Below, piece by piece: positions 1-21,430 of a stretch of DNA of 32,000 nt. The position numbers were made by a program, and so were the translations under genes. The notes under the pieces are model-generated. The model saw nothing but the letters and a program-made list of their open reading frames with translations. It was not told where the DNA came from and searched no databases. The DNA is from Patescibacteria group bacterium (GTDB taxonomy: Bacteria > Patescibacteriota > UBA1384 > XYA2-FULL-43-10), in the NCBI GenBank assembly GCA_041674405.1, contig JBAYVT010000004.1:1-32000 (forward strand), given 5' to 3'. Positions within the stretch are counted from its first letter, which is position 1, and the number at the start of each line of letters is the position of its first letter.

Positions 1-945
1 GATCGAAACTAACATATCGAGCGAAGCCAACTGATTAGATGTAATTTTCTGTAAACCTATCCCCAAAGAAACTAGAGCGACAATCGAGCCGACCCCCATA
101 GCAACGCCCAAAGTAGTCAAAAAAGCCCTAAGCCCTTTGCTTAAAAAATGGATGGAAGATAAGCGCAAGATCTCAAATATTCCCAAATGCCCGGCATGAA
201 TTCTCACATTTTTGCTTCGCGGCTGCTCTTCCGGCTTGCCAATATCTGCAACTTTCTGATTGTGCACCTCTTTGATAACCTTCCCGTCTTCCATGTACAG
301 GACCTTGTTCCCTTCATTCACAAAATCCGGATTATGGGTAACCATCACTATGGTCGTTCGCCATTTCTCACTTATCTCTTTTAAGATACTCATGATTTCC
401 TTGCCTGTCGGCACATCCAAGTTGCCTGTCGGCTCGTCAACCAAAAGAATATCTGGATTCGTAATCAGCGCCCTGGCTATGGCAACCCTTTGTTGCTGCC
501 CACCGGAAAGCTGCGAAGGTTTATGGCGAGCGCGATCTTTAAGCCCCAATAAAGACAAGTATTGAATCGCTTTTTTTCTCGCCTTTCTTGATTTTTCCCC
601 TTGAAGCAAAAGCGGCATTGCCACATTATCTCTAGCAGTAAGAGCATCAACTAAATTAAACTGCTGAAAAACCATTCCGATTTTTTGGCCTCGGAATTTT
701 GCTTGGTTTTTGGGCTTTAGCGCATTAATATTTATACCTTCAAGAAAGATCTTCCCATCTGTGGGCCTTTCTAGCCCAGCGAGAAGCGAAAGTAAAGTTG
801 TCTTACCACATCCTGACGGGCCGTACACAACAACGAACTCACCTCGATATATATCCAGGTTTATCTGTTTTAGGGCGGGTACGTTAATACGCCCAACCCG
901 ATAAGATTTATTTATGCCTTCCGCAGTTATTTCTGGTCTGTCCAT
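1..945 (-). CDS. MacB-type ABC transporter: N-terminal ATPase fused to an FtsX-like permease (3' end runs off the window)
   Basis: Hand translation from the ATG at 945 (GAGG upstream) gives MDRPEITAEGINKSYRVG. In frame are Walker A GPSGCGKTTLLS (about 790-825), the ABC signature LSGGQQQRVAIARAL (about 470-513) and Walker B ILLVDEPTGN (about 421-450). The frame stays open to nt 1 and enters LRAFLTTLGVAMGVGSIVALVSLG, which looks like the first TM helix of MacB/FtsX permeases. It is absent from the ORF track because there is no stop inside the window. The plus-strand ORFs at 187-904 are its antisense shadows. Confidence 0.85.
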   Translation of the reverse strand, partial: MDRPEITAEGINKSYRVGRINVPALKQINLDIYRGEFVVVYGPSGCGKTTLLSLLAGLERPTDGKIFLEGININALKPKNQAKFRGQKIGMVFQQFNLVDALTARDNVAMPLLLQGEKSRKARKKAIQYLSLLGLKDRARHKPSQLSGGQQQRVAIARALITNPDILLVDEPTGNLDVPTGKEIMSILKEISEKWRTTIVMVTHNPDFVNEGNKVLYMEDGKVIKEVHNQKVADIGKPEEQPRSKNVRIHAGHLGIFEILRLSSIHFLSKGLRAFLTTLGVAMGVGSIVALVSLGIGLQKITSNQLASLDMLVSI

Positions 946-1202
946 TTTGAATCCGCCTCTAATTCTTCTTCGTACTTGCTCAGATGGACAACTTCCCATA
1001 ACGCTTCAAAAACTGCGATGCAAGTTGCTAGTATTATCAAAGCTGTAATAAAAATTGCCCCAGAAATTAATGCTTTTCGCTCAAGTCCGCCATCGGCATA
1101 AATTACCAGAACATAAATTCCGGCACCGACAAGACCAGTGGAAAAAATAATCCCCAGCGAAAGGATAAGGACTGCTCCAATTTTAATCAACGAATTTCTC
1201 AT
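927..1202 (-). CDS. small membrane protein (91 aa, 2-3 predicted TM helices), function unknown
   Basis: ORF with an ATG start and two long hydrophobic segments (IGAVLILSLGIIFSTGLVGAGIYVLVIY; GAIFITALIILATCIAVF). Its stop overlaps the MacB-like start by 19 nt, which suggests translational coupling. No recognisable SD. Confidence 0.5.
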   Translation of the reverse strand: MRNSLIKIGAVLILSLGIIFSTGLVGAGIYVLVIYADGGLERKALISGAIFITALIILATCIAVFEALWEVVHLSKYEEELEADSKWTDQK

Positions 1203-1329: not shown

Positions 1330-4300
1330 TTATCCCCTCATCCACTTATCAAATCCCGATAGTGCATCTTGCAACGCTTTAACTATTATCTCGAATAATG
1401 ACATATCGGTTGGGGCGTTTTCAGCCACAAATTTTTGGATAGCTGATGTAGTAACATTTTCTCCTGATTTATCGATAGTTTTAAGCTCAAAGCTGTAGTT
1501 CCTGGTAGGCTTTAGGTTTTCGATAAGAATTGTGTGTGACTGATTTAGAGCCTCATCAAGCGGCGTTTGCAAATTTAGACTTTCTCCCTCTCCGTATAGG
1601 ACCTGTGATTTGGCTAATTTGTCAGTTTTGAACGTCACAATAACCGAAGCATTGTCCTTACTGACAGCGCCGGATTCAATCTTGATTGCTGAAATTACGC
1701 TCTTACCCGAAAGTTCATCGCTTGACACTCCGGTAAGTTCTCCGACTTTGTAAGTATAATTTGCATTGGTTTTTGCCGAAAAATCCAGATAAAAATTCTG
1801 GTCTGTCTCCCCGATTGTCACAAAGCTGCCCCCATCTTCTGACCTCTGAATACTGACATTGCCTTTGCCCTTCGGCCAATACAGCGCATAGGAAGGCTTT
1901 GTTGGGGTTGAAATATTTGAAACAAATAAAGTATCCAGGGAAGACATGGCGTTATCTGCCGCATAAACCATGTCGTGGTTTGCCGAAAAAAGATTTCTGA
2001 CTGAACTCCAGATACGGCTGAATGAATTTGAAAGGGTTTCTGCGATTAAATCAAGAATCGATTTTTGCTTTACTTTGCTTCCAGTGGTAAACGTCTGGTC
2101 AGAAGAAAAGATCTCATTGCCTCGCTTATCCTTAGAAATCACCCTGAAATGATAGGTAGTTGCCGGATTCAAATCTGGCAAGATAACCGTATGCGAAGAA
2201 TTTAAACCGGTGTCGATGTCGGTTTTTCTATCGTAATTTGCGCTTGTGCCGAATTCAACCTGCGAGGTGGCAGGCACGCTTGTTGACCAAGTGGCTTTCG
2301 CCTGAGTTTTGTCCGATATAACTCCTGAAGGCTCTACTTTGATATCAGAAATTTCAAGTTTGCCCTCGCCAATTATTGCATCGGGTAAAATGATTGTGGT
2401 ATCCCCGGCTTTTTGGCTTGTAGTACGGGTAATATCCGTATCGGCAAGCGTTGCCGCGACCTCGGGTGTTATATTGCCGGCTAAATCAACTGCTTTGATG
2501 CTATATGAAGTTTTTAAATTTGCCTGCGACAAATCAAGATAGAACGAATATCCGGTTTTCGGATCGCTAACTATACCCCCGGTTATTCCATTCGGGCCGA
2601 CATTTAAGGCAGATCCGTTTTTAGAAACCACATATCCTTTGAGGCCCGAGATTGCATCAGTTGATGATTTCCAAGCGATCGCTGCAGCAAAAATATTATC
2701 AGCCCTGTCTGAAACATCGTACATTACGGCATCTTCCGGTCTTCCCGGTGCAGTCGTGTCGATTGCAATTATATATTCGTCTGACGAGGCGCTGATATTT
2801 TCCATTTTGTCAGAAGCGCTAACGCGCACAAAATAGGTGCCGTCAACCCCGAATTCATATGCAAATGAAGTTGTTCCCGCATCAATTTCTGCTTCCGAAA
2901 CAACATCATTTCTTCCCGATGCAGAGCCGATATTTATGATGTAGTTCTTAAGGCCAGAATTTATATCTTCAGACGCAGACCAGTTAAATGTCAATTTTCT
3001 GGCTGTGGCAACAATATTTCCGTTAATGTTTTGGGTCGTCTCTGTGACGCCTGGCTTTCCTGGCGTAGTCGGATTATCCGAATCAGCACGTGCAGTCACT
3101 TCGTTCGACACGCCGCTTTCGTTGCCGACCCCATCCAGTGCCGTTACTTTGTAATAATAATCTATGTTGTTAGTCGCATCAGGATCAACATATGTTGCTC
3201 CGCCTCCATAAATTTCAAATGTTTTGTTCGCAGAACCAAGATCAAATCCGGCCGCTGCTCCGCGATACACTTTAATTTTCAAAAGATCAGAATCAGAAGG
3301 ATTAGTCCAGGAAAGAGAAATGGTGTGATTACCGGCTTGTGCAGAAAGAGCTGTTGGGTCAGCCGGAGCGGCGCGATCTAGTGTGATTGATTGCGAATAG
3401 GTAGCCGACTCGTTGCCGTACTGGTCTTTGTATTTGAGACATATTGTGTAGGCGGCATCGACATCAGGCAGCGCCAGGCCGATACTAGAAGCAACACCGA
3501 TGTAATCGCTGTCCGAAAAATCAGAATTAGTCGAAGCAATTACCTGTGTAGCAGTGCCGTAAGTCAAATTTAGTGATAAATCGCGAGAATTCGTCGTTGA
3601 TCCTTGCGCAATCGCAAACGAGCCTGACGGTGCGGGATTATCGTTAATGATCGTAAATGTGAGCGTGCTGGTCGCGCCAATAGAGGTATTTACAGGATTG
3701 GAAAGTGTGAAGACGATAGTTTTGTTCGAGCCCACAAGGTGATTGTTGATCAGCGTCAAATTAACACTAACTCCATTCTGTCCATGGGCAATACTCGCAG
3801 TACCATTGGTAAAAGTGTAATCGGTATCTTTAACTGCCGTACCACCAGTAGCTGCGTAATCAACAGAGGCGTCTGTGCCGGATATTTCAGAAAGGTTAAT
3901 TGAAATGTTATTGGATCCAGAAGAAATTGAATTCTGGCTGGTTGCAGCAGCAAATTGCACGCTTGGATATCCAGTAATGGTGTGGACCAAAGCAGACATC
4001 GAAGTCTCAGCACCATCATTGTTTTCGGCTTTCATTTGATAAGCATACTCCGTACCAGCGGTAAGGCCGGAATTAGTAAAGCCCGAAGCCCCACCCCAGT
4101 CCGAATATGTTTGCCAATCAGCATCGTTTTGCAGGCTTCCATCAGCATGTTTGACATACTTTCCAAGAGTCTCATTATATATTGCATATCTGGTGCCAGC
4201 CGGATTGGAATTTTGATTTATGAAAATTTTAATCGCACTAGCTGAAACGGCAGAGGCATCTGGGGCTCCAGGCACATTTGCCAAGGTATATTTCGAAGCA

Positions 4301-7300
4301 GCCAAAGATGGGGCTGCCAAAACACCATCGCCGTTTCTTGCCCTAACCACATAGCTATAAGAAGTGTTGCTGGATAGTCCAATATTGGCTATTCCAGAAT
4401 CTCCGCCCCAACCTTCTCTTGTTTGCCACGTTGCAAAGGCGCTCAATGTACCATCGGCTTTAAGATATTGTCCAGCGGCTGAGTTATAGATAATAAATTC
4501 GGTACTAGCCGGATTTGAATTTGCATTTATTATTATTGTTAAAGAGCTAGAAGAAGTTGCATTGACGGTTGGCGAAATTGAAGCATTAGCTGGCGAATAA
4601 ACATTGGCAGTACTCGAGAAATCAGTGGTAATCATGTCGCCATTTTCGGCTTTGACCTTATATGTGTATGAGACATTCGGGCTAAGACCAACATTTATAA
4701 ATCCGCTTGCACCACCCCAATCGGCATAGAGTTGCCAGTCTGGGTCATCTTGGAGCGTTCCATCAGCGTGTTTGACATATTTGCCGGCAGTATCATTGAA
4801 AATTGCATAACGAGTATTGGCATCAGGATTGCTATTTTTGTTAATAACAATCTTAATGCCGGAAGCGGTCGCCGACACTGTCGGGGCACCAGGAATATTG
4901 GCCAGTGTATAAACCGTCTTTTGATTAGAATCGTTTGAGCCATAATCATTGAATACATTTGCGTGGCGGGTATAGGAAGTATTGGCCGAAAGCCCGGTTT
5001 CATTCCAGCCTGTTGAATCAGCAGCTAAATCATGCAAGTCTGTGTGGTCGGTGTCTTCTACTTTCCAGCCAGTCTCTCCCGAGACATTACTCCAGCTCCA
5101 ATTAACTTGTGAAGCTGATGCAGCCGTGCCATTAAAATCGTTGGGTGCAATTGGCGCAACACAGGCGCCGGTTGCGAAGTTTGAAATTGCAGACCAGCCT
5201 CCTGTACCATTTGCATCAGAGGTAGATGATACTTTCCAATAATATGTCGTCACGTCAACCAGGTCAGATAGGCCATGTTGGGTATCTGTAATATTTGATG
5301 TTGTACCAAGATTTGTTGCATTCGTATCCGTACCATAAGAAAAATTATAACTATTGGCGCCGCTTGCAGCAGCCCATGAAGCCAAAGCAGTGGTTGAACA
5401 AATATTGGATACTTGCCTGTTGGTAGGAGGTCCGGGAGGAGTAACATCAGCTCCGGCAATTGAATAAGACGTTTCTGTGCCATCGCCATTTTTGGCTTTA
5501 ATCTTAAACCAATATTGAGTATTCCAAGGCTTTCCGAACAAATTATAAGTCGTCTCTGTCTGCCAAGCCATATCCACCGGATCTTGATAATCAGTTCCGT
5601 TGGCAGAATATTGAATCCAATAATTTGTGCCTTCGGGATTATTATTTGGGTTAATCGTCACATCGAAGTGATAACCATACGCGAGGACATAGTCCCCCGA
5701 TACAGTCGGCGCAGACGGTGTATTTGCCAAAGTATACTTCGGCGCTGAATACGCTGGGTCGGAATCGCTGCCTGATCCGGCGGCAATTATCTTGGCACAA
5801 TACTGTGTGTTGATACTTTTTCCGGTCACAGACTGCAAAGTTGCGCCGGCGGCCGCTGTGTAGTCGGGCGTATCAGGATAAGTTGCAAGCGAGCAGTCAG
5901 CATTGGAATTGGTCGAAATATAGACTTTGAATCCGGTCTCATCTGAGGAGTTATCGGTCCAAGTAGCATCAAACGAGGTAGAATCGATATTACCGATGGC
6001 CGCATCCGTCGGAGCGTTGGGCTTGCAGACAGCGCTTGAACTTATCAACCAGCCAACATTGCCAGAGCCGGTTGAATATGTCGCACAGAAAGAAGCACCA
6101 GTATTTGTCGATTTTGACACATCAACATAAGTGACTGCAGTAATCGTCGTCGGGTTAAATGCCCAGTTGGTTGTGCTGGATGGTGCTAGTATAATCGGAT
6201 GGTTAGCTGCACCAGCAATGTTTACCTTATCAAAGTCGTAAGTAGAGCCGGAATGGAAAGTCAATTTTGATGATTGGGTCGTGTCTGTAAACGTGCCGTT
6301 AACAGTCGCGGAATCAGCAAATACTACGCCAGAAGCTGACGCATTGGTTGAAGTCAAATTATTGAATTCTTGAATAGAGGTCCCATTTGATGAAGTAATC
6401 GTCTGAGTGTTCGAACCATTCAGGGTCACCACTTGTGTGCCAGTGCCAGGCGTTACCGCAATTCCGGCAAAATTGATATTCCCGCCAACAGAAATTGAAC
6501 CTGTGCCGAAGTCGATGGCATTGCCTGATAGGGTCCCACTCTGGCGTAAATCTCCTGCATCAGTATGAGAACCAGACTTAAGCAATATTACTCCGCCGTA
6601 GTTATTGCCACCAAGACCAGCATATAAACCATTAGAGGAAAGATTTACTCCATTCGTATCTAAAGTAGTGGTTTTATTAGAAGTTGCACCCGAAGCACTA
6701 ATATAGCCAGTGGTAGTAATACCCGAAGAAAGTGTAAATGTCACATTGTTAGTTTTGCCTACGTACTGCACATTCATATTGCCAAAATTGTATCCGGCAA
6801 TTGTAATATCCGAATTGGGATAATATTTAAGAAATCCACCACCAGACCAAGTAACCCCTGTGTTTACTAAAGGATCACCATCAGACTTGCCCAAATCTAA
6901 ATAATGTCCTGATGACAGAACTCCTCCAGAATAGACATATAAAAAGTTACCAACATAAATTGATGTATCTAAGGTGGTAGTCTGTCCATTGTGAGCACAC
7001 TTTAAATTATAGAAATCATAAGAAACTCCCGAAACTACCGCAAGTGCTTTCACACTTCCTGTCCCAGTCAAATCAACAGTAGAAGTGCCTGATGTTTCCG
7101 TAATATTCGTTCCGCTTGAATCCCAATTGCCTGAGACAGTCCAAGTGCCGGAGCCGTATTGAAGAACTCGGGTTGTGGAGCCGGAGGCAGTCATATTTGC
7201 GCAGAAAATATTGTGTGTATCAGCATTAAATGTGCCTTTGGTCAACGTGAAATCACTATTGGCGACAATATCGCCAGCTGCGGTGTAAGTCCCCGTTCCA

Positions 7301-10300
7301 TTGAAAGTTAGTTTGTAATAAGTTGTCGCAGTGATAGTCGGCGTGCCTGCACCCCGGTATGTTATGGTCGAAGTCGAAGACGTGAAGGTGTCGTTGATGA
7401 CCAAAGGCGTACCTCCGCCCCAAATTTCTATCGTTTTGTTTGAGGCGTCAAAATTACCAGCCGTAATTGTAAGCGTTGAACCCACAGTTATATCGCCCGC
7501 AGCGGTAAAGGTAGTGCCAGCTTGGTTGAAGAAGAGGTTGTAATAGCTGGCGGCAGCGACAGTCGTAGGACCCGATCCGGTGTATCTGACATTAGAAGTG
7601 AATGGATCAAACGTTCCATTAATTACAAGCGGCGTGCCAGATCCAGATAGGTAAAGATTGGTATTGCCCACATTGAAGGTGCCCGCGTTAACTGTCAAAA
7701 CGTTGGAGACGGTGTTGTTGCCGACTTCTGTAAAGGTTGTCCCTGTGTGGTTGATATATAGGTTGTAATAAGTTGTTCCTTTTACATTTGTCGCTGATGT
7801 GCCCTCATAAGAAATGGTTGAAGTAGATGGTGTAAATGTACCAGTATTAATAAATGGTGTGCCAGAACCAGTGAGGTGAATAGTCTTGTTAGAAGCATTA
7901 AATGTACCAGCATTGTTAGTGAAAACAGATGAAACTGTAATATCGCCGGCAGCAGTGAATGTAGTACTAGTATGATCTAGATAAAGATTGTTATAAGTCG
8001 TACCAGCAATATTTGTGGCGGAGGAGCCGGTATATTTGAAAGTTGAAGTCGAAGCGGTAAGCGCCCCGCCCGGAGCAGTTGCCGTACCCAGTGAATAGAA
8101 GGAAGCTGGAGCGTTTTGGCTGTTATAATCGGTGGTAACCCAAGGCTGAGTCCAAGCGACGCCATTGCCGACTCTTAACTCATCGAAGTAGGCATTTGCG
8201 TACGACGGACCGGCATAGAGGTTTGCCCCCAAGCGCAATGATCCAGTCAAGACAGGTGCCGACGCGGATGTATTTTGCCCGACCTGAGTGGCACCGACAT
8301 AAATCGTCCAGACACCACCGGAAGTTCGAGTTATGGTAAGCTTTTTCCAGCCGAGCGTTGTTATCGAGCCGGCTGGAGCTGTTACTACGCTTCCGGCGAC
8401 ATATGGAATATCGACATTGATCGAACCGTTAGTGTTGATAGTGGCAAATATCTGGCCTCCACTAAAACCACCCGGCCCCCTGCCGATGAAAGTGCTTACA
8501 CTGCTCAATGAATTGAGATATGTCCAAGTGCCCCATGATGCAGTCGCGCTATCGAGCCCGACCGGAGAGGTCTTGGTGAAGTAGGCCGAACTGCCGTCGA
8601 GCATCATGCTTTTGCCCACTGTCCCGTTTGCGCTATATGTGACGCTTCCGCTTGGTGTCAGATCATTGATATTTGATGTGGAGTCTGTCGCATTACCGGA
8701 AGCCTGATTCATATGCCAGACACCGGCGAAGCCATTGCTCCAGACCGCCTGCTGGTCGGCGGCGGAGGGCATAGTCGCCGAAGAGTTGCCCCAATAGAGA
8801 TAAAAAGTGGAATCAGCGTCACTGCTTAAAGAAGGAGCCTTAAACCAAACTTCCATCGTGTGTCCAGTGGTATCAACGCTTACGACTTGGTTTTTCAGGA
8901 CAGTGGTTGCATTGGAGTCGGTAACGCGGATATCTTTTCCGTCAGAGGCGACCTGCGACCAGAAATCAGCAGGAATGTTGGCCTCAGTCAAAAGTACCGG
9001 AAAATCGCTTACTCCACCCGTGCCGATTTTGGTGTGGTCAATTGTAATAGTGGAGCGATGGCCCCAGCCGGTCAGCCAAGCGCCGGTAGCGCCCGGAGTA
9101 ATCACAAATGGCGTTCCACTTCCGGTTAAATTAATTGTCTTATCCGCAGCATCAAATGTTCCGGCATTAATGGTAAAAACATTTGAAACTGTAATATCGC
9201 CAGCTGCTACATATGTTTCAACCGCTTGGTTAATGTATAAATTGTAATAGGTTGCTGAAGTTACACTTGTGTTACCCGAGGCATTTCCTGTATAGCTGAT
9301 TGTCGAGGTAGACGGAGTAAACGAGCCGTTCAAAACGAAGGGGGCACCAGTTGAGCCAGCTAAGGTAATTGTTTTATTTGAAGCATCGAATGTGCCGGCA
9401 TTAACTGTTAGAACATTATAAACTACAAAATTTGCCGCTGCCGTAAAGGTTGTATTGCTATGATCGAGGTAAAGGTTGTGATAATAAACCCCGGCAACAT
9501 TAGTTGCAGCTGCACCTGTATACTTGACAGTAGATGTGGAACGATGAAAAGAGGCGATTGATGATACAAGAGGTGTACCCGATCCGGATAAAGTAATAGT
9601 ATAACTAGACGCATCAAAAATGCCTGTATTTACAGTTAGCACCGAGGAAACCGTTATGTCGCCAGCTGCCGTAAAGGTTGTGTCGGCGTAATTGAAATAC
9701 AGATTGTTGTAGGTAGTAGAAGCAACATTCGTGGCCAATGTACCCTCGTAAGAGATGGTCGAGGTCGCGGGCGTAAAGGTACCGGTCACAACGAATGGAG
9801 TAGTTGAGCCGGTGAGGTGGAGTGTTCTTGACGACGCACTAAATGCTCCGGCATTAATTGTTAACACACCACTAACCGTAATATCACCAGCGGCAGTAAA
9901 GGTAGTGCCGGTATGATCTGCAGCATAAAGGTTGTAATAACTTAAGGCATTTACATTGGTAGCGTTTGCTCCCTGAAACTTAACTGTCGACGTGCCGATC
10001 GTAAAGGTCCCTGCAATAGAGAGTGGATCTCCAGAACCTGTCAAAACAAGGGTTGTGCCGTCAAGATTAACTGTGGCCGTCGCTGGAATGACTAGATTGG
10101 GAGTTGTCGAAGTAATGCCCGCCCCCGAGTTGGGCCGCCAAGCGTTTCCGGCAAGGACATAAAGTTTTTGGTCAGTATCGGTTTGTGTTGCGCCGGTTGG
10201 AAGGGTTAGGTCCCCCGTACCAGTATTAACCTCAAAGAAAATGTCTTCATCGGAAGAAACCGAATTGTCGTATTTGGAAATATCAGTATTGGAAAGTGTT

Positions 10301-13300
10301 TGATTGTCGGCTGAACCGATGGATAAATGTTTTTCATAAAGTGCTATGCCGGATACATCACCGGAGACATATTTTGTAACCGCATTTGCTTCATTGGCAT
10401 CGGCCACGCCATCAACAAAAACCGTGATCGTATCTCCAGCTGAAGGCTGGGTGACATTTGAGATTGACCAGGACCCTCCCGAAGTTGTACCAGTAGCCGC
10501 ATCGAGGCTCCCATTGATTGCCACTTTGACCGTTTCACTATCGCCGCAGTTGGTTGACTCATCATACTGTTTGCAGGTGCCGGAAATGGTGATACCCCCG
10601 GCGGGTACTGAATAAAAGGTTGAGGCGGAACTCTGATTATTAAATTCAGTTTGAATCCAGGGCTGAGTACGAATAGTTGAAGAAGCGGTAAAATTTTCAA
10701 ACTTTGCGCCTGTTTGCGATCCTCCCCAACTATTGTGTGCCCTCTGCCCTATGCCCACGTCTATCGCTCCTGTTGCATTTGGATCTCCATTCACCGTTGG
10801 ATGGGCAACGTCTGAGCCATCGATATAGAACTTCATCGAATTCCCTGAAGGCGAGAAAGTGAGAGAAACAAAATGCCAACCCGTTGTAAGGACATTCCCA
10901 GCACCTACCCATCCGTTAACATTGTCGTAATAAGAAATTTCAGCATTGTTATAGTCCCACTCATACGAAACGGTGGAATCATTCGAATATCGACTAATAA
11001 TTTGGTGGATGCCGTCTGAAACACTTGGAAAATAAACCATTCCTTCAAAGGTTTTGTCTTGAGCGTTAAGATTAAGCGAATCACTGCTGCCGACATTAAT
11101 TGTTTGACCTGCGGTATATTGCTGCGACTTTCCGTAAAGGCCGTCGGCTTGAACAGGAGTATTTGCGCCCGATTTGCTACCTGTGTTGCCGTTTCCGCTT
11201 GAATCAGAAATAGTTGAAGTCGTCACATCGTTCATGTGCCAGACACCGGCATAACCGTTTGACCATACTCCCTGTTTCCAGGAGGCTGGCGGGGCAACCG
11301 CCCCAGTATTACCCCAGTAAAGCTTAAAAACAGTATCGCTATCGCTCGAAAGACCGTCAGCCTTGAACCAGAGTTCCATTTTTTTGTTACCCGTATCAAG
11401 AGAAACTAGCTCGTGATTCATTAGTAAGGTATCGTCGTGGTTCATTATCCTGATATCTTTGCCATCGGCCGCGACCTGGCTCCAAAACAAAGCCGGGATA
11501 TTGGCCTCGGTGACAAGAACGGGGAAGTCGGCAACTCCGCCTGTACCAACCTTCGTGTGGTCAATCGTAATCGTGGTGTTATAATCCCAACTAGTCGGAG
11601 GAATGGGTATGGCTGTAAAGTCTTTTCCTGTGAGATCAGCTCCGGAAACCGTCGCACTCAAAGTTGCCGGGGTAAATGTGTAAGCTGTCTTGGTTGGGGT
11701 CAAAGTGTAGGTTCCATCGGGTACACCTGTAATCGTATAAGCTCCATTTTCGTCAGTATCATCGGATCTGGTACCATCAGACACAGTAACGCCAGAAATG
11801 CCAGTGCTAGACCAGTCGAGTATTGTGCCTGAGATGCTGTACGATGGCTCCTCGGCAACTGCAAAATCGGTGTCGGGCACATCTGATCCGCTCAATGCAA
11901 CGTCGGTACTGGTGGGCGAGAATGTTAGCCCTTCTATGGTTGGAGTGACAGTCCATGTCATACCGCTAAGCAAAGGCGGACTCGTGTAATTACCGCCGCC
12001 ATCGGCAGTAACATGAATTGTGGTTTGGCCAGAAGCGCTGAAAGCCACATCTGCCCCCGCTGCCTGGCTTGACGCTAGATATCTGACAATTACTATACCT
12101 GAGCCACCGTGCCCGCCAGCATAACTGCCCGAGTCAGCACCTGAACCACCGCCTCCGCCGCCAGTATTTGCCGTTCCGTCGGTTCCGTTTTGAGCCGATA
12201 TGCTCCCGGCTCCGCCACCACCTTTTCCTCCAGCTTTGGCACTTCCACCACGATCTGTCCTCGCTCCTCCTCCGCCACCTCCGGCGATCCATCTTGTTCC
12301 TGAAATATCAACGCCGGCATTAGCTGCTGTGAGCAAGCTTGAATATGTTGACAAGCCATCTCCGCCAGCACCGGCAGTATCTCCAGATGCATTTCCTCCT
12401 ACAGCGCCTGCGCCACCTCCTCCTGCTCCTCCCCAACCATATGCCGATGTTTCATCACCTCCATCATTACCTTGGTTTGCAGTACCAGAACCACCACTAC
12501 CATAAGTAGTACCATCACTAGCGCTTCCGCCACCGCCACTACCACCATTACTACCTGCTGTTCCAGAATACGGCCAAGTACTAGTTGTTCTTGATCCACC
12601 ACCGCCACCACCTACAGCCGTCAAGGTGTCGACGACAGAATTTTCGCCACTTTCCCCAGGAAGTCCTCCTCCCGCTTGCGCATTCCCGGCTCCTCCCAAA
12701 CCGACAGTAACTGGATATGATCCAGCTGAAAATGAATGGGAGCTTTCATGCAATAATCCTCCAGCACCACCGCCACCAGCGAAATATCCGCCGCCGCCGC
12801 CGCCAGCCACTAAGAGAACCTCTGCTTCTGCGGCTTCGGAGACGACAAGCGTGTCATCGGATTTAAAGGTGCGGATAGTGTATGCACCATCATAGATAAC
12901 TGTTCCGCCACTCATAGGATCGGATCCTGCAGCAACGGTTCCGCTAATAATGTTAGCTGCTACTGCAGTGGAATCTTGCCCTGTTACATTTGCATTGGTG
13001 ATAGAAATATCTGATATGGTAGCGGGGGTAAAGCCATAATTAGTCTTGCTGAAAGCGAGATTATAGGTGCCAGGAACTAATGGTGTCGTGGTAAATGTGC
13101 CGTTAGCGGCCGTAGTGGCAGTTGCGCTTGAGGTGCCAGTAACCGAAACCGTAACTCCCGACAATCCGTTGCCACCGTAGGTAACGGTTCCTGATATAGT
13201 CCATCCATCTGGATCCCCATCAGTGACAGTTGGGGCTGGGGCAGCTGCTAGTGCCCATGTGCCCTGATCTGGAGTGGCAGCATTGGCATCTTTATAAACA

Positions 13301-14487
13301 TCTGTCATCGTCATTGGATCTTGTATATACCAGTCGCTACCGCTCTGGTAGAGCATGCCCATATAGTCCGTTTTCATATATTGGCCAGGACCGACAGAAT
13401 CATACTGTCCGTTAAAATTTGTATTCCCTGCGCCGGCGACCAAATAGCCAGTACCACTAACTGTTACCGAAGTTGGTGCCGGGCTATCGCTTCCTGCAAT
13501 TACCCAAGTACCAAGTGGCGAAGATGAGTTATTCGTATAAGTTCCCAATGTACCAGGCCCACCCATGTTGTAATAGATCGAATATGTTCCCGTCCAGTTA
13601 GCATCTCCAAGTTCCCAGTAAGAATTAGAAGCATTATAATAGTACGCTATGCCATTCGAATTCATGCCTGTCATATTAGCATCAAAAACATAATTCCCAT
13701 TTGCCGCGCTAATCCCTGCGCCGCTGACGACATAAAGCGATGATTTTCTGGTAACAGTCGGCGCGCTACCGGGACTGTTGGCAGTCCAGCTACCATCTTG
13801 GGGATTTGCTGAATTTGTATAATACAGCATGTACATCCCATTAGGATCCATAACTTGCCATTGGCCGTAATTTTGAAGCACAAAGTTACTACTATTCATG
13901 TAGTAGCCGCCTCTGTCTGTGTATGTCCCATTTACCTCCGAGTATCCCGCACCTGAAGCAACATAGTCTGATCCATTAAGAGTAAAGGTCGGTGCTGTGC
14001 CCCAATAAGAACTCCATGATCCGACAGGAGTGTCACCGGTTGTTGTGAACATTTTTAGGCCTGATTGTTCGGAAAGAACCCAGTCACTGCCTGATTTGGT
14101 TATAGTACCCTGGCCCATCATGCCAGACATTGTATAAGGACCATCGTCTGTGCCATAATAAAAACCATCCAAATTCATGGTTCCGGAAATCGAGTAAAGG
14201 TGGTTTGTCGCTGCCTTCACCGGCTTAGGCGCAATAGAATTATAGCCCCACAAGCCAATCCCAAATGAGAAAAATAACAAAAATAAATAATGAGCCCACT
14301 TTGCCCCGCTCCACAAATGCCATCTGTAATACCATTGAAACTTCATCCGGCAAAAATTGTGTGCAGGTTCTAAGTGCGGGATTAATGTTCTCGTACTTTT
14401 TTGAATTTTCATAATTTCATCATCCAATTCCATGATTGTCATTCCGCAACGCTTGCTCCGATATTTTAATATTTTTGATCGCAGCAA
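1330..14487 (-). CDS. giant N-terminally anchored, repeat-rich cell-surface protein (4385 aa), likely an adhesin/lectin-type protein
   Basis: A single uninterrupted 13.2-kb ORF. An N-terminal hydrophobic anchor (KWAHYLFLLFFSFGIGLWGY, aa 63-83) is followed by: four novel aromatic/Gly-rich repeats; SGTV-type beta-sandwich domains; a 250-aa glycine-rich domain; two DUF2341-like plus LamG-like modules (TITIDHTK[VI]GTGGV[AS]DFPVL..., ...GVWHMN...); about 9 units of a 75-aa TTFTAAGDITVS...YYNLY repeat; at least 10 FN3-like domains; one Calx-beta-like domain; and two purple-acid-phosphatase-N-type FN3 domains. The start is uncertain: in-frame ATGs also occur at 14442, 14433, 14412 and 14346, and none has a clear SD. 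Confidence 0.9.
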   Translation of the reverse strand: MLRSKILKYRSKRCGMTIMELDDEIMKIQKSTRTLIPHLEPAHNFCRMKFQWYYRWHLWSGAKWAHYLFLLFFSFGIGLWGYNSIAPKPVKAATNHLYSISGTMNLDGFYYGTDDGPYTMSGMMGQGTITKSGSDWVLSEQSGLKMFTTTGDTPVGSWSSYWGTAPTFTLNGSDYVASGAGYSEVNGTYTDRGGYYMNSSNFVLQNYGQWQVMDPNGMYMLYYTNSANPQDGSWTANSPGSAPTVTRKSSLYVVSGAGISAANGNYVFDANMTGMNSNGIAYYYNASNSYWELGDANWTGTYSIYYNMGGPGTLGTYTNNSSSPLGTWVIAGSDSPAPTSVTVSGTGYLVAGAGNTNFNGQYDSVGPGQYMKTDYMGMLYQSGSDWYIQDPMTMTDVYKDANAATPDQGTWALAAAPAPTVTDGDPDGWTISGTVTYGGNGLSGVTVSVTGTSSATATTAANGTFTTTPLVPGTYNLAFSKTNYGFTPATISDISITNANVTGQDSTAVAANIISGTVAAGSDPMSGGTVIYDGAYTIRTFKSDDTLVVSEAAEAEVLLVAGGGGGGYFAGGGGAGGLLHESSHSFSAGSYPVTVGLGGAGNAQAGGGLPGESGENSVVDTLTAVGGGGGGSRTTSTWPYSGTAGSNGGSGGGGSASDGTTYGSGGSGTANQGNDGGDETSAYGWGGAGGGGAGAVGGNASGDTAGAGGDGLSTYSSLLTAANAGVDISGTRWIAGGGGGGARTDRGGSAKAGGKGGGGAGSISAQNGTDGTANTGGGGGGSGADSGSYAGGHGGSGIVIVRYLASSQAAGADVAFSASGQTTIHVTADGGGNYTSPPLLSGMTWTVTPTIEGLTFSPTSTDVALSGSDVPDTDFAVAEEPSYSISGTILDWSSTGISGVTVSDGTRSDDTDENGAYTITGVPDGTYTLTPTKTAYTFTPATLSATVSGADLTGKDFTAIPIPPTSWDYNTTITIDHTKVGTGGVADFPVLVTEANIPALFWSQVAADGKDIRIMNHDDTLLMNHELVSLDTGNKKMELWFKADGLSSDSDTVFKLYWGNTGAVAPPASWKQGVWSNGYAGVWHMNDVTTSTISDSSGNGNTGSKSGANTPVQADGLYGKSQQYTAGQTINVGSSDSLNLNAQDKTFEGMVYFPSVSDGIHQIISRYSNDSTVSYEWDYNNAEISYYDNVNGWVGAGNVLTTGWHFVSLTFSPSGNSMKFYIDGSDVAHPTVNGDPNATGAIDVGIGQRAHNSWGGSQTGAKFENFTASSTIRTQPWIQTEFNNQSSASTFYSVPAGGITISGTCKQYDESTNCGDSETVKVAINGSLDAATGTTSGGSWSISNVTQPSAGDTITVFVDGVADANEANAVTKYVSGDVSGIALYEKHLSIGSADNQTLSNTDISKYDNSVSSDEDIFFEVNTGTGDLTLPTGATQTDTDQKLYVLAGNAWRPNSGAGITSTTPNLVIPATATVNLDGTTLVLTGSGDPLSIAGTFTIGTSTVKFQGANATNVNALSYYNLYAADHTGTTFTAAGDITVSGVLTINAGAFSASSRTLHLTGSTTPFVVTGTFTPATSTISYEGTLATNVASTTYNNLYFNYADTTFTAAGDITVSSVLTVNTGIFDASSYTITLSGSGTPLVSSIASFHRSTSTVKYTGAAATNVAGVYYHNLYLDHSNTTFTAAANFVVYNVLTVNAGTFDASNKTITLAGSTGAPFVLNGSFTPSTSTISYTGNASGNTSVTSATYYNLYINQAVETYVAAGDITVSNVFTINAGTFDAADKTINLTGSGTPFVITPGATGAWLTGWGHRSTITIDHTKIGTGGVSDFPVLLTEANIPADFWSQVASDGKDIRVTDSNATTVLKNQVVSVDTTGHTMEVWFKAPSLSSDADSTFYLYWGNSSATMPSAADQQAVWSNGFAGVWHMNQASGNATDSTSNINDLTPSGSVTYSANGTVGKSMMLDGSSAYFTKTSPVGLDSATASWGTWTYLNSLSSVSTFIGRGPGGFSGGQIFATINTNGSINVDIPYVAGSVVTAPAGSITTLGWKKLTITRTSGGVWTIYVGATQVGQNTSASAPVLTGSLRLGANLYAGPSYANAYFDELRVGNGVAWTQPWVTTDYNSQNAPASFYSLGTATAPGGALTASTSTFKYTGSSATNIAGTTYNNLYLDHTSTTFTAAGDITVSSVFTNNAGTFNASNKTIHLTGSGTPFINTGTFTPSTSTISYEGTSATNVKGTTYYNLYINHTGTTFTEVGNNTVSNVLTVNAGTFNVGNTNLYLSGSGTPLVINGTFDPFTSNVRYTGSGPTTVAAASYYNLFFNQAGTTFTAAGDITVGSTLTITAGNFDASNKTIEIWGGGTPLVINDTFTSSTSTITYRGAGTPTITATTYYKLTFNGTGTYTAAGDIVANSDFTLTKGTFNADTHNIFCANMTASGSTTRVLQYGSGTWTVSGNWDSSGTNITETSGTSTVDLTGTGSVKALAVVSGVSYDFYNLKCAHNGQTTTLDTSIYVGNFLYVYSGGVLSSGHYLDLGKSDGDPLVNTGVTWSGGGFLKYYPNSDITIAGYNFGNMNVQYVGKTNNVTFTLSSGITTTGYISASGATSNKTTTLDTNGVNLSSNGLYAGLGGNNYGGVILLKSGSHTDAGDLRQSGTLSGNAIDFGTGSISVGGNINFAGIAVTPGTGTQVVTLNGSNTQTITSSNGTSIQEFNNLTSTNASASGVVFADSATVNGTFTDTTQSSKLTFHSGSTYDFDKVNIAGAANHPIILAPSSTTNWAFNPTTITAVTYVDVSKSTNTGASFCATYSTGSGNVGWLISSSAVCKPNAPTDAAIGNIDSTSFDATWTDNSSDETGFKVYISTNSNADCSLATYPDTPDYTAAAGATLQSVTGKSINTQYCAKIIAAGSGSDSDPAYSAPKYTLANTPSAPTVSGDYVLAYGYHFDVTINPNNNPEGTNYWIQYSANGTDYQDPVDMAWQTETTYNLFGKPWNTQYWFKIKAKNGDGTETSYSIAGADVTPPGPPTNRQVSNICSTTALASWAAASGANSYNFSYGTDTNATNLGTTSNITDTQHGLSDLVDVTTYYWKVSSTSDANGTGGWSAISNFATGACVAPIAPNDFNGTAASASQVNWSWSNVSGETGWKVEDTDHTDLHDLAADSTGWNETGLSANTSYTRHANVFNDYGSNDSNQKTVYTLANIPGAPTVSATASGIKIVINKNSNPDANTRYAIFNDTAGKYVKHADGTLQDDPDWQLYADWGGASGFINVGLSPNVSYTYKVKAENGDMITTDFSSTANVYSPANASISPTVNATSSSSLTIIINANSNPASTEFIIYNSAAGQYLKADGTLSAFATWQTREGWGGDSGIANIGLSSNTSYSYVVRARNGDGVLAAPSLAASKYTLANVPGAPDASAVSASAIKIFINQNSNPAGTRYAIYNETLGKYVKHADGSLQNDADWQTYSDWGGASGFTNSGLTAGTEYAYQMKAENNDGAETSMSALVHTITGYPSVQFAAATSQNSISSGSNNISINLSEISGTDASVDYAATGGTAVKDTDYTFTNGTASIAHGQNGVSVNLTLINNHLVGSNKTIVFTLSNPVNTSIGATSTLTFTIINDNPAPSGSFAIAQGSTTNSRDLSLNLTYGTATQVIASTNSDFSDSDYIGVASSIGLALPDVDAAYTICLKYKDQYGNESATYSQSITLDRAAPADPTALSAQAGNHTISLSWTNPSDSDLLKIKVYRGAAAGFDLGSANKTFEIYGGGATYVDPDATNNIDYYYKVTALDGVGNESGVSNEVTARADSDNPTTPGKPGVTETTQNINGNIVATARKLTFNWSASEDINSGLKNYIINIGSASGRNDVVSEAEIDAGTTSFAYEFGVDGTYFVRVSASDKMENISASSDEYIIAIDTTAPGRPEDAVMYDVSDRADNIFAAAIAWKSSTDAISGLKGYVVSKNGSALNVGPNGITGGIVSDPKTGYSFYLDLSQANLKTSYSIKAVDLAGNITPEVAATLADTDITRTTSQKAGDTTIILPDAIIGEGKLEISDIKVEPSGVISDKTQAKATWSTSVPATSQVEFGTSANYDRKTDIDTGLNSSHTVILPDLNPATTYHFRVISKDKRGNEIFSSDQTFTTGSKVKQKSILDLIAETLSNSFSRIWSSVRNLFSANHDMVYAADNAMSSLDTLFVSNISTPTKPSYALYWPKGKGNVSIQRSEDGGSFVTIGETDQNFYLDFSAKTNANYTYKVGELTGVSSDELSGKSVISAIKIESGAVSKDNASVIVTFKTDKLAKSQVLYGEGESLNLQTPLDEALNQSHTILIENLKPTRNYSFELKTIDKSGENVTTSAIQKFVAENAPTDMSLFEIIVKALQDALSGFDKWMRG
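3643..3972 (-). other. Calx-beta-like domain (aa 3506-3615)
   Basis: SVQFAAATSQNSISSGSNNISINLSEISGTDASVDYAATGGTAVKDTDYTFTNGTASIAHGQNGVSVNLTLINNHLVGSNKTIVFTLSNP matches the Calx-beta pattern (V.Y.T..GTA..G.DY....G.l.F..Ge....i.v.i..D). Confidence 0.6.
3973..6024 (-). repeat. array of seven FN3-like domains (aa 2822-3505)
   Basis: Units of about 90-100 aa with the spacing W...Y...Y.[VF].A.N..G. Units 5 and 7 are about 75% identical (KYTLAN[IV]PGAP...NSNP...RYAI[FY]N[DE]T[AL]GKYVKHADG[TS]LQ[DN]D[PA]DWQ). Confidence 0.65.
7168..8070 (-). repeat. array 2 of the same 75-aa coding repeat
   Basis: About 4.5 units at aa 2140-2440, directly after DUF2341/LamG copy 2. Confidence 0.65.
8083..9072 (-). 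other. DUF2341-like plus LamG-like module, copy 2 (aa 1806-2135)
   Basis: TITIDHTKIGTGGVSDFPVLLTEANIPADFWSQVASDGKDIRV...LYWGN then GVWHMNQASGNATD...IYVG. The first 45 aa are about 85% identical to copy 1. Confidence 0.6.
9088..10050 (-). repeat. array 1 of about 75-aa coding repeats (TTFTAAGDITVSxVLTxNAGxFxASxxTIxLTGSGTPxVxxGTFTPxTSTISYxGxxATNVxxxxYxNLY)
   Basis: About 4.5 units at aa 1480-1800, probably a beta-solenoid. Confidence 0.65.
10603..11592 (-). other. DUF2341-like plus LamG/concanavalin-A-like lectin module, copy 1 (aa 966-1295)
   Basis: TITIDHTKVGTGGVADFPVLVTEANIPALFWSQVAADGKDIRI...LYWGN then GVWHMNDVT...SGNGNTG...FYIDG, the pattern I associate with DUF2341 followed by Laminin_G_3. 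Confidence 0.6.
12079..12822 (-). other. segment encoding a glycine-rich domain (aa 556-803) of the giant protein
   Basis: Runs of GGGGGG separated by short S/T/A/N stretches. The domain starts EVLLVAGGGGGGY and ends GGHGGSGIVIVRY. The GGN codons raise local G+C and create shadow ORFs on both strands (12093-12895). Confidence 0.75.
13222..14175 (-). repeat. coding repeats: four copies of an uncharacterised 75-95-aa module (Y-[VL]-V-[SA]-G-A-G-x4-N-G-x-Y ... W ... APT[VF]T)
   Basis: aa 105-422 of the giant ORF. Aligned by eye: SDYVASGAGYSEVNGTY.., SLYVVSGAGISAANGNY.., TGYLVAGAGNTNFNGQY... Each copy ends in ..AP(A)PT(S)VT. Confidence 0.6.
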
Positions 14488-14807
14488 AATCTCTCATTTT
14501 ATTTTGCACAACAAAATAATGGGCGTGAAATACGCTTTTCCCAAAATAAGTAAATTGTATTCGGATTTACTATCACCGCCCCTCGCAAAATTGCACTCGA
14601 TAACACACAAGAAAAGTGAGAAACTCGCTTTAGAACTCGATGGACTCCCTCCATCATGTTTTCATTATATAGTATGCCCAGCTATTGGACAACCAATATT
14701 ATCAAGATTTTATTCAAAAAATTATCTGTAGCGCAACAAAATTGGCAAGAGCAATAAAAACACTTTTAAAAAGCGGAAAACAAGAAATAAGCAAATCTCT
14801 TCGAAAA

Positions 14808-15335
14808 TTATTTCAATGAAATAGACACATCGCCCGTATTGATGTTCCCGGTAGAGTTGTTAAATAAAATCGTATTTGAACCAGTGTTCACATTCACACT
14901 GACATTCTGGTTTGAATATATTTTTTTGGTGACTTGCGTAAAAATTGCATCGGAAACATAGACAGTCGCTTTGTTTATATTGACTGAATTTGGCCCTGTT
15001 AAATCATTTTTGAATGTAAAAGTATTGCCTGGAGCATCGCGATCAATGACTATAAGTTCACGCGCATAAACCTGCGCCGGTAGGAAATCTTGGAAGTGGT
15101 GATGTTTTCTCATCAACCCCTGGTCCTGGAAAAAAACGGCGTTTGTGTCGATTACAATCAGATTTTCCAAATTTGTTTTCATTTGAATATCACAGCCGTC
15201 TCTGTGGCAATGGCTGTGAATCCGAGTTTTGACATCCGAACTGGCAGCATATGCGTTTGGCATAGCCACCACTATCAATACCAGAGTGACAAAAGTAGCC
15301 AGAACAACTCTCGCTATTTTCTGTAAATAAACCAT
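14808..15335 (-). CDS. secreted hypothetical protein (175 aa), His/Cys-rich N-terminal part and N/T/G-rich C-terminal tail
   Basis: Strong SD GGAAGGAGGTGAACCGA-ATG at 15335; the longer TTG start in the ORF track lies inside this SD. Signal peptide MVYLQKIARVVLATFVTLVLIVVAMPNAYA/AS. Also HSHCHRDGCD and KHHHF motifs, and the tail NVSVNVNTGSNTILFNNSTGNINTGDVSISLK. Confidence 0.7.
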   Translation of the reverse strand: MVYLQKIARVVLATFVTLVLIVVAMPNAYAASSDVKTRIHSHCHRDGCDIQMKTNLENLIVIDTNAVFFQDQGLMRKHHHFQDFLPAQVYARELIVIDRDAPGNTFTFKNDLTGPNSVNINKATVYVSDAIFTQVTKKIYSNQNVSVNVNTGSNTILFNNSTGNINTGDVSISLK

Positions 15336-15486
15336 TCGGTTCACCTCCTTCCGTAGCAAAAATAAAAAACGCCATAAGTTTACCCGACGGCGCTCAATAT
15401 TCCTATGGATTTATTTACTATCTCAACCTTTTAATCTTGAATGCAAGTTCGAGGATTTTAAGATTTTGGGTGTATTTTTGACTTTT

Positions 15487-20878: not shown

Positions 20879-21364
20879 ATGTCCGACCGTAATCTTCTAT
20901 GTGCCCGAGAGATTCTTGAGAAGATCTATCTTTCACGGTATATCTTTCTCTCTGGTCTTTCAGGGTACGACACCGAAGCACAATCCGCCATTGGCACCTT
21001 CGTGGTGCCTACATCCGAGCAACTTCGCTACACAGCCGAACAACTCGGCTATGTCTCCGCCACCGAGCGCCACTCGTGCGTCAATCAGCTCGCATATTCA
21101 CTCACTGCTCTGCTTGTCCGCGATCATGCCGGGCAATTCGCGTGTTACGATCTCGAGTCATTTCGAGACCTCTCCTCTGGCTTCCAGATGTGGAATACCA
21201 AGGAGCACTTCGAGCACAAGAAAGTGCTTCCCCGAGACACGGAGTTCGAGATTAGCATGCACGTGACGCGATCTCGAATCAGCCCTCACGGGCTGAGCGT
21301 CGTCGAAGTGGAACTCAACAGGGGCGTCGATGGTTATGTCCATTTCGCCGTACAGGTAGATTAG
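20879..21364 (+). CDS. hypothetical protein (161 aa), possibly a hotdog-fold FcoT/AfsA-like thioesterase-type protein
   Basis: SD GGGAGG lies 9 nt upstream of the ATG at 20879. About 55-58% G+C against about 40% in the neighbours. The segment F.VP.S......G..S..E...C.NQ.AY.L.ALLV resembles the central-helix region of FcoT-like hotdog proteins; this is recalled by eye only and is weak. It is the only plus-strand gene besides dnaE. Confidence 0.6.
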   Translation: MSDRNLLCAREILEKIYLSRYIFLSGLSGYDTEAQSAIGTFVVPTSEQLRYTAEQLGYVSATERHSCVNQLAYSLTALLVRDHAGQFACYDLESFRDLSSGFQMWNTKEHFEHKKVLPRDTEFEISMHVTRSRISPHGLSVVEVELNRGVDGYVHFAVQVD

Positions 21365-21377
21365 GAGGTGAGATCAG

Positions 21378-21405
21378 AAAAACGAGCCTTTAGGGGCTCG
21401 TTTTT
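21378..21405. terminator. bidirectional rho-independent terminator
   Basis: AAAAACGAGCC-TTTAGG-GGCTCGTTTTT: an 11-bp stem (6 GC-containing pairs plus an A/T extension) and a 6-nt loop, with A-run and T-run flanks. It lies between the convergent 20879-21364 (+) and rplS (-) genes. Confidence 0.8.
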
Positions 21406-21430
21406 CATATTTAGATCACATTATTTCAAT

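Follow-up and report, generated by a model that had tools for sequence, protein, structure and literature searches.

A giant modular surface protein of a Candidatus Berkelbacteria genome, its extended leader and its C-terminal helix module linked to MacB-type ABC genes

Introduction

Patescibacteria live attached to other cells, and the means of attachment of most of them is not established. This paper deals with a giant gene on the reverse strand of a 32,000-nucleotide (nt) stretch of DNA (hereafter the window), positions 1 to 32,000 of contig JBAYVT010000004.1 of the assembly GCA_041674405.1. The source organism is Candidatus Berkelbacteria (Patescibacteria), an ultra-small bacterium, and its genome consists of 929 kb in 7 contigs with a completeness of 98.7%, the window being the first 32 kb of the contig designated C4 below. 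The giant gene by itself makes up 1.4% of this genome. An earlier note, made from the letters of the window without database searches, described its product as an N-terminally anchored mosaic surface protein and suggested an attachment function. The gene was followed up here by domain searches, structure prediction and comparison with the genomes of the same order (44 genomes), focusing primarily on the two ends of the protein, that is, an extended leader and a C-terminal tail module, the latter being tightly linked genetically to a downstream gene of the MacB-type ATP-binding cassette (ABC) family.

The Giant Gene and the Layout of the Locus

The features of the locus are collected in Table 1, in which, as throughout the text, the residues of the giant protein are counted from TTG 14487.

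Table 1. Features of the giant gene and of the two genes downstream of it (aa, amino acids; TM, transmembrane segment).
Feature	Position in the window	Strand	Remarks
Whole giant frame	1330..14487	-	4385 codons from TTG; stop codon 1330-1332
Extended leader	14212..14442	-	aa 16-92 (77 residues); conserved N-region, hydrophobic core aa 66-86, site P-K-P-V-K-A↓A
Four copies of aromatic/Gly/Asn-rich beta domain	13198..14211	-	aa 93-430; ~80-95 aa each; no known family
CarboxypepD_reg, Gly_rich_2 and further beta-sandwiches	11620..13200	-	CarboxypepD_reg aa 430-505, Gly_rich_2 aa ~549-803, second CarboxypepD_reg aa 885-956
Head unit 1	9043..11466	-	DUF2341 (aa ~1008-1065), Laminin_G_3/ConA-like lectin (aa ~1135-1279), beta domain (aa ~1296-1458), beta-helix
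Head unit 2	6028..8943	-	DUF2341 (aa 1849-1923), LamG-like region, long beta-helix (aa 2125 to ~2820)
Conserved stalk	2446..6024	-	seven FN3-like units (aa 2822-3505), Calx-beta-like domain (aa 3506-3616), unassigned 87-aa beta domain, three FN3-sized units (to aa 4014)
Tail unit 1	1978..2370	-	PAP-N-type FN3 (aa 4040-4141), internal amphipathic helix (aa 4142-4170)
Tail unit 2	1333..1944	-	FN3-like domain, PAP-N-type FN3, terminal amphipathic helix (aa 4361-4385)
2-TM hairpin protein	927..1202	-	91 aa; no known family; directly downstream of the giant gene
Fused MacB-type (type VII) ABC gene, 5' part	1..999	-	ABC_tran and start of MacB_PCD; cut by the contig end

The giant frame is, as the earlier note claimed, one open reading frame without any internal stop codon. 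Tandem Repeats Finder gave no tandem repeats in it, and the longest direct DNA repeats inside the gene are 111 nt long, with a period of 225 nt and 60-74% identity. Since these repeats have diverged so far (74% identity at most), a collapse of repeats during assembly, which the note itself had raised as an objection, is unlikely, and the giant frame is real. The same protein is already on record as a gene call of 4367 aa.

The in-frame start codons are TTG 14487 and four ATGs (M16, M19, M26 and M48), so that four of the five ATGs which the note had counted between 14487 and 14346 are borne out, while the outermost start proved to be a TTG. In a paralog on contig C2 of the same genome (C2:136455-148634), a stop codon lies two codons ahead of the methionine homologous to M16, and because of this the start of the giant gene is assigned to ATG 14442 (M16). 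Translation thus probably begins there to give 4370 aa, the alternatives being TTG 14487 and ATG 14433, the start used in the recorded gene call. The stop codon in the paralog also justifies the doubt expressed beforehand about the first 16-18 codons, although not for the reason given, namely a mini-palindrome at 14438-14462, which was not detected in the sequence. Two promoter-like sites (TTGCCA-16-GATAAT and TTGTCC-17-TATAAT) are found at 14664-14748 on the reverse strand, about 220-280 nt upstream of the gene start; they would imply a long 5' leader on the mRNA, and the number of such sites is not above shuffle expectation.

The N-Terminal Leader

The N-region of the leader carries the motifs LD..I..IQKSTRT and P.HN.LR.K..WYY.WH as well as the invariant His66, and the leader includes the only hydrophobic segment of the whole protein (aa 61-87). 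In the host genome the leader is present on three genes, that is, the giant gene, the C2 paralog mentioned above (4060 aa) and C6:56211-57152, which is cut by the contig end. In the order it occurs in 27 of the 44 genomes, usually on 2-5 large genes per genome, which encode up to 6641 aa; the families f1, f2 and f3 have it, and it is found in none of the 12 genomes of f4. A profile built from the three own-genome leaders was searched against 1.84 billion proteins and matched 372 cluster representatives (209 at E ≤ 1e-10). Among the best 150 of the 372 matches, the leader begins within the first 75 residues in 148, and 82 are at least 800 aa long; many of the short leader-bearing matches are probably fragments truncated at contig ends. 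Scanning aa 1-550 against Pfam and NCBIfam gave no match for the leader, and the motifs of the extended signals YSIRK, KxYKxGKxW and ESPR differ from its own.

The alignment of 110 leaders has six invariant residues (S31, R47, W52, Y53, W56 and H66) and five nearly invariant ones (Y54 99%, H43 99%, T32 97%, H57 95% and Q29 93%). Past the hydrophobic core, a pattern of Pro87 at -6 (69%), V/T/A90 at -3 (71%), Ala92 at -1 (91%) and A/S/T93 at +1 (75%) is conserved, the candidate signal-peptidase site of the giant protein itself being VKA↓A after aa 92. Two or three homologs of signal peptidase I are encoded in the host genome. As this pattern fits a helix-breaker followed by the -3/-1 rule, and as signal peptidase I genes are present, the leader is read as a cleaved extended signal peptide; in the same alignment the features of a Sec signal peptide, namely a positive N-region, a hydrophobic core and small residues at -3 and -1, are all found. 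Consequently, of the single N-terminal signal-anchor claimed in the earlier note the single hydrophobic segment stands and the anchoring is not supported, because a conserved site of the signal-peptidase type follows that segment in the 110 leaders. The leader is probably removed by cleavage, in which case the protein is not N-terminally anchored and the four-repeat region would become the N-terminal tip of the mature protein. The mature giant protein would be an acidic protein of about 444 kDa with an isoelectric point of 4.4, rich in Thr, Gly, Ser and Asn.

The Stalk and the C-Terminal Tail Module

Of the seven FN3-like units of the stalk, one passes the Pfam cut-off at 52 bits and the other six score 13-19 bits, fn3 being the top match in four of them and a sub-threshold match in the other two. 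Over the whole giant protein fn3 scores 74.3 bits and Pur_ac_phosph_N 48.1 bits, and the protein therefore belongs to these families although most single units lie below the cut-off. Among the three FN3-sized units before aa 4014, only the first has a weak fn3 match. Calx-beta (PF03160) matches over profile positions 6-118 of 119 at 23.9 and 20.6 bits, that is, below the cut-off of 27; PF03160 is recorded for the orthologs P0003 and P0004. Thus the FN3 domains proposed beforehand are supported and the Calx-beta domain is probable.

The tail consists of two copies of a PAP-N-type FN3 domain with an amphipathic helix after each, just as the earlier note had proposed, and both domains are matched in Pfam. 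In the AlphaFold model of aa 4030-4385, made with an alignment of 8 sequences, three FN3 domains are predicted (predicted local distance difference test (pLDDT) ~80-93), and Foldseek matched the model to tandem FN3 structures (E ~1e-8). The two helices (aa 4144-4168 and 4364-4384) have a pLDDT of 34-56 and do not pack on the FN3 domains. They are the most amphipathic 18-mers of the giant protein, having a hydrophobic moment of 0.61-0.65 compared with a 99th percentile of 0.44, and the motif of the helix, [ST].[FL].II..AL..AF.GF..W, is conserved.

The tail module, that is, the last 130 residues with a PAP-N-type FN3 domain and the helix, ends four proteins of the host genome, the other three being encoded on contigs C6 (3740 aa), C1 (1444 aa) and C3 (1277 aa), and it is found in 38 of the 44 genomes of the order. 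Furthermore, the last ~220 residues exist in close relatives as a free-standing secreted protein of 240-255 aa, consisting of a signal peptide, an FN3-like domain, a PAP-N FN3 domain and the helix; the giant protein is therefore taken to carry two tail units, one internal and one terminal. A signal peptidase I gene (C3:135980-136447, -) lies directly upstream of the gene for the 1277-aa tail-helix protein (C3:132091-135921, -), which hints at a dedicated processing enzyme for such proteins.

No [LIV]P.[TSA]G motif occurs anywhere in the giant protein and it has no C-terminal hydrophobic segment, so it is not of the sortase-anchored type; in addition, there is no RTX family among its Pfam matches, as type I secretion would call for. 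The note was correct in reporting neither a C-terminal transmembrane segment nor LPXTG, while its statement that no other sorting signal is visible is not supported, the FN3 and helix tail being in itself a conserved C-terminal module. The host genome also has two sortase genes (C3:66988 and C1:27541), and LPQTG is found near the C-terminus of the products of C6:1622-5311 (+), where a hydrophobic stretch follows, and C6:42415-45057 (+). Sortase anchoring thus coexists with the tail-helix type in this genome.

Linkage of the Tail to MacB-Type ABC Genes

Full-length orthologs of the ABC gene encode 650-668 aa with ABC_tran, MacB_PCD and FtsX domains; in one of them (L041:5984-7912) these score 129, 70.5 and 57.8 bits, respectively, which is the type VII architecture. 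The order of a tail gene (giant or small), a 2-TM gene and a fused ABC gene recurs in G021, G033 and G034 and at loci L043-L045, and at L046 the order of tail gene and ABC gene is kept without the 2-TM gene; of six close orthologs, five keep the gene order. Apart from the host genome, ten genomes of the order encode the 2-TM protein, nine of which belong to family f2, and in seven of the ten its gene directly follows the orthologous tail. Within the host genome, the paralog on C6 (3740 aa) is followed by genes for an ABC ATPase and an FtsX-type permease.

To quantify the linkage in the order, the positions of the tail matches were compared with those of the MacB_PCD matches in all 44 genomes. 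A MacB_PCD gene lies on the same strand within 2 kb downstream of 56 of the 78 ORFs that end in the tail, at a median distance of 897 nt, which is about the length of one ATPase gene, and five further tail genes sit behind another tail-bearing gene. Given about four MacB genes per 0.9-Mb genome, such an adjacency would be expected by chance in about 0.4% of cases. The tail module and the downstream MacB-type ABC gene are, then, tightly linked.

The earlier note had looked for partners upstream, where genes for a His/Cys-rich protein, a PIG-L deacetylase and a GT4 transferase lie. No homolog of any of them was found in the fetched flanks of the orthologs, so that they were rejected as conserved partners and a local partnership gets no support from conservation. 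As it is the 2-TM and ABC genes that are conserved beside the orthologs, the conserved partners lie downstream and not upstream. The His/Cys-rich product (14808-15359, -) is a small secreted protein, in which His and Cys are concentrated in the N-terminal part; it belongs to no Pfam family and has two weak paralogs on contig C2 (4514-5392 and 5484-7340), and it is not kept beside the orthologs of the giant gene.

The 0.93-Mb genome carries at least five MacB-type ABC systems (C4:1-999, C6:3-1541, C6:18278-20233, C5:141152-143094 and C1:228272-229668), a high number for a genome so small.

The Head Domains

The order of domains given in the earlier note is essentially right by the Pfam scans. 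Its four novel N-terminal repeats are real: the model of one repeat, for which its seven own-genome copies served as the alignment, is a confident all-beta fold (pLDDT 85.5, predicted TM score 0.71) without a known structural relative, since nothing in PDB or BFVD reached E ≤ 0.001 when Foldseek was run with it. The highest-ranking partial matches were blades of Atg18 propellers (36 columns) and uncharacterised viral proteins at a TM score of 0.6. The repeats are rare, being seen only in P0003 and in the paralogs on C2 and C6, and when aa 16-440 served as the query of a word-indexed homolog search, the giant protein itself was the sole result.

The beta-sandwich and Gly-rich domains that follow are both confirmed, with two CarboxypepD_reg matches (36.9 and 34.5 bits) and Gly_rich_2 (60.5 bits). 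DUF2341 (PF10102) matches over two stretches with 55.5 bits against a cut-off of 23.4, and the giant protein is accordingly a member of this family. The solenoid repeats, about eleven of 74-75 aa, form two blocks: the beta-helix of head unit 1 has about 4.5 repeats of 75 aa (aa 1459-1815), and that of head unit 2 has six clear repeats of 74 aa (aa 2125-2578) and then degenerates up to aa ~2820. Laminin_G_3 (PF13385) was matched in the first copy with 37.3 bits against a cut-off of 27.6, only in the 220-aa piece aa 1081-1300, whereas the corresponding region of head unit 2 had no Pfam match and is called LamG-like by its position after the second DUF2341. Therefore, of the two copies of DUF2341, LamG and 75-aa solenoid proposed beforehand, both DUF2341 domains and both solenoid blocks are supported and LamG is supported in copy 1. 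The DUF2341/LamG unit had no sequence match in the PDB, and the NCBIfam scan gave no useful match for any part of the giant protein. The remaining Pfam matches include weak ones of the SdrD_B/SpaA-like type and one weak S_layer_C match (14.4 bits).

Orthologs, Paralogs and Module Exchange

Orthologs of the giant gene encode 3196-5207 aa, and in them the leader and the final 800-1,570 residues, that is, the stalk and the tail, are retained. They include P0003 (3196 aa, 62% identity over the collinear part from aa 2816 to the end), P0004 of G021 (3294 aa, 54% identity), P0005 of G034 (4313 aa, 42% identity) and the ortholog in G033 (5207 aa, 41% identity). The comparison of the locus across related genomes, which the earlier note had proposed, shows that leader, stalk and tail are kept, the head modules being reordered, duplicated or absent in the relatives. 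Moreover, pieces of the head resemble those of the other giant genes in the host genome more than those of the orthologs (aa 1292-1658 are 72% identical to C2), which suggests that modules have been exchanged within the genome. A base that is conserved and a tip that varies, as judged from these alignments, would fit a C-terminal end that faces the cell and an N-terminal end that meets a changing target.

Two giant genes stand in tandem on contig C2, C2:136455-148634 (-) (4060 aa) and C2:148647-155939 (-) (over 2431 aa, incomplete at the contig end). They have head modules in common with the giant protein, at up to 72% identity, and at least the first has the same leader, but they end in a different C-terminal cassette (…EGY.L..PV.F…). 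The giant genes of the host genome thus seem to combine leaders, heads and tails freely.

Comparison with Known Systems

Patescibacteria cells are regarded as monoderm. A close parallel to the gene arrangement is FtsEX with its partners EnvC of E. coli and PcsB, CwlO and RipC of monoderms, where likewise a MacB-fold ABC system is encoded beside a secreted, helix-bearing partner. As with the mechanotransducers of the FtsEX type, no transported substrate is evident, and by analogy the helix of the giant protein could be captured by the extracytoplasmic domain of the ABC protein. The partner here, however, is a 444-kDa FN3/lectin fibre, or a 240-aa protein with two FN3 domains, bearing a single short terminal helix instead of a coiled-coil hydrolase regulator; in addition, there is an extra 2-TM protein, the ATPase and the permease are fused, and the system is known here from its genes.

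In the layout of the protein itself, the stalked adhesins of Gram-positive bacteria come closest to the giant protein, although the sorting signals differ at both ends. The sortase-anchored microbial surface components recognizing adhesive matrix molecules, such as SdrD, and the giant Ig-repeat adhesins also have a signal peptide, N-terminal ligand modules, an Ig/FN3 stalk and a C-terminal attachment signal, but the giant protein is without LPxTG, transmembrane segment or basic tail, and its attachment would be non-covalent, through the tail helix. At the other end, the leader resembles the YSIRK/GxxS and KxYKxGKxW signals of Gram-positive bacteria and the extended signal peptide region (ESPR) of autotransporters in having a conserved motif in a lengthened N-region, an ordinary core and an AXA-type site on large surface proteins. 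Its motif (QKSTRT ... H.xLR.K..WYY.WH ... H) is, however, unrelated to theirs in sequence, the N-region is about 50 aa long, and the leader is known from about 372 clusters of uncultured bacteria only.

The RTX adhesins (LapA, SiiE and MpIBP) are also very large and modular, with Ca-binding or lectin modules and an adjacent ABC gene. These proteins, which are secreted by type I systems, have RTX repeats at the C-terminus and no signal peptide at the N-terminus, and they depend on an HlyB-type ABC protein with a membrane fusion protein and TolC in diderm cells, whereas the giant protein has an N-terminal leader, no RTX match and a MacB-type ABC gene in a cell taken as monoderm. Finally, a C-terminal amphipathic helix (~20-25 residues, hydrophobic moment high) is also found in PBP5 and PBP6, exported low-molecular-weight penicillin-binding proteins of E. 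coli; unlike theirs, the helix of the giant protein is strongly conserved in sequence and genetically linked to an ABC complex. In the literature searched, no paper was found on the leader, the tail or the pairing of MacB with giant proteins in Patescibacteria.

Proposed Mechanism and Alternative Explanations

From these lines of evidence, the giant protein is thought, with rather better than even confidence, to be a secreted adhesin-like surface fibre whose leader is cleaved, whose tail is docked on the MacB-type ABC/2-TM complex and whose head binds glycans. The leader would act as an extended Sec signal peptide, cut by signal peptidase I after Ala92. The aromatic repeats and the lectin/beta-helix head of the mature fibre would then lie at the free, outward end, and the FN3 stalk and the tail helices at the cell-proximal end. 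The conserved order of tail and ABC genes suggests that the tail helix docks on the ABC motor encoded downstream, and, by analogy with EnvC or PcsB on FtsEX, the helices might do so non-covalently on the extracytoplasmic face of the complex. The fibre would be held by this complex, which might spend ATP on mounting, tensioning or releasing it, and the LamG units and aromatic repeats of the head may bind glycans on a host cell or substrate. The attachment function suggested in the earlier note is thus plausible for this giant extracytoplasmic mosaic, in which LamG, beta-helix and FN3 modules and, probably, Calx-beta are combined.

Several points weigh against this explanation. The ABC gene of the window is incomplete at the contig end, and in 14 of the 78 cases the tail gene is not followed by a MacB gene on its contig. 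Among these are the genes on C1 (next to secY) and C3 of the host genome itself; when the 14 were looked at by hand, three were found to have MacB just upstream and several to abut contig ends. The low pLDDT of the tail helices, which do not pack on the FN3 domains, may merely reflect the shallow alignment of eight sequences. As to the leader, its cleavage is deduced from a sequence pattern, and a simple count of AXA patterns discriminates weakly (94% of leaders against 64% of control windows, the proteins being rich in Ala, Ser and Thr), so the count was replaced by the column conservation in the leader alignment.

The best surviving alternative, still an unlikely one, is that the leader is an uncleaved signal-anchor, with the novel repeats at the membrane, the FN3/helix end directed outward and the helices serving for oligomerisation or for capturing a partner at the tip. 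The presence of only one hydrophobic segment would agree with it, and the long (~50 aa), strongly conserved, basic and aromatic N-region could be a cytoplasmic docking domain. Nevertheless, the Pro(-6)/small(-3)/Ala(-1) site is conserved past the hydrophobic core, the C-terminal stalk and tail are the conserved part tied to membrane-protein genes while the N-proximal modules vary, and free-standing proteins made of a signal peptide and a tail unit make little sense as distal tips.

It is likewise improbable that the terminal helix is a self-sufficient in-plane anchor like that of PBP5 and PBP6, the ABC protein exporting a lipid, peptide or glycoconjugate, or extracting or releasing the fibre. 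In its favour, the hydrophobic moment of the helices is high, of the same order as in the PBP5 tail, and they end in aromatic and basic residues; furthermore, some tail-bearing genes have no adjacent ABC gene, and MacB-family members such as LolCDE are generally known to extract membrane-embedded substrates. The sequence of the helix is, however, conserved far beyond the need of amphipathicity, the gene order is very tight (56/78, with the median gap of 897 nt), and a dedicated 2-TM protein co-occurs with the ortholog group of the giant gene.

Release of the protein into the medium, or its use as an S-layer-like or matrix material with the ABC gene order reflecting only co-regulation, seems very unlikely. 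It would account for the lack of a covalent anchoring motif, for the acidic, Thr/Gly/Ser-rich composition and for the weak S_layer_C match, but both the conserved terminal helix and its association with genes for membrane proteins extend over three families of the order, and the head-stalk-tail layout is typical of tethered adhesins. Lastly, it is scarcely credible that the long frame arose by misassembly or belongs to a decaying pseudogene, as no point in its support was found and 13 kb without a stop codon, the diverged internal repeats, the record of the same protein from a 158-kb contig and the collinearity of the 3196-5207-aa orthologs over stalk and tail all speak against it.

There is a moderate chance that the coupling of tail and ABC protein is a new anchoring system. 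A wider proposal is put forward tentatively, as one that we consider possible but rather doubtful as a whole: the tail, the 2-TM hairpin and the MacB-type ABC protein may form an undescribed system for the ATP-driven mounting, holding or release of giant attachment fibres on the one membrane of Patescibacteria, the QKSTRT/WYYxWH leader may be an extended signal peptide of a new class, used only by very large surface proteins, and the two tail helices may engage the two halves of a dimeric ABC protein.

Other Features of the Window

A GC-rich block (22080-22700, -) lies between rplS (21431-22075) and rpmA (22915-23238); the 1-kb windows over 21001-23000 have a G + C content of 52-53%, the genome having about 42%. 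The block folds with a minimum free energy of -276.8 kcal/mol, compared with a shuffle mean of -248.9 kcal/mol (z = -5.4), with a strong hairpin at its end. No Rfam family matches it, even at E ≤ 0.1, and it contains an ORF of 114 aa (22284-22628). It may be a small GC-rich gene, an insert of foreign origin or a structured RNA. The neighbouring ribosomal protein L19 (21431-22075, -) has a C-terminal extension of ~90 residues rich in Glu, Ala and Lys.

Conclusions

Giant surface proteins occupy a large share of the tiny genomes of Patescibacteria. If the adjacency of the ABC gene is only regulatory, the finding shrinks to one more large mosaic adhesin. On the evidence of their sequences, such proteins consist of a fixed chassis, that is, a dedicated leader, an FN3 stalk and a tail helix, and of interchangeable heads, and the leader and the tail helix provide two sequence signatures for recognising surface fibres in metagenomic data. 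The giant protein described here bears on how uncultured episymbionts display, and perhaps operate, their adhesins.

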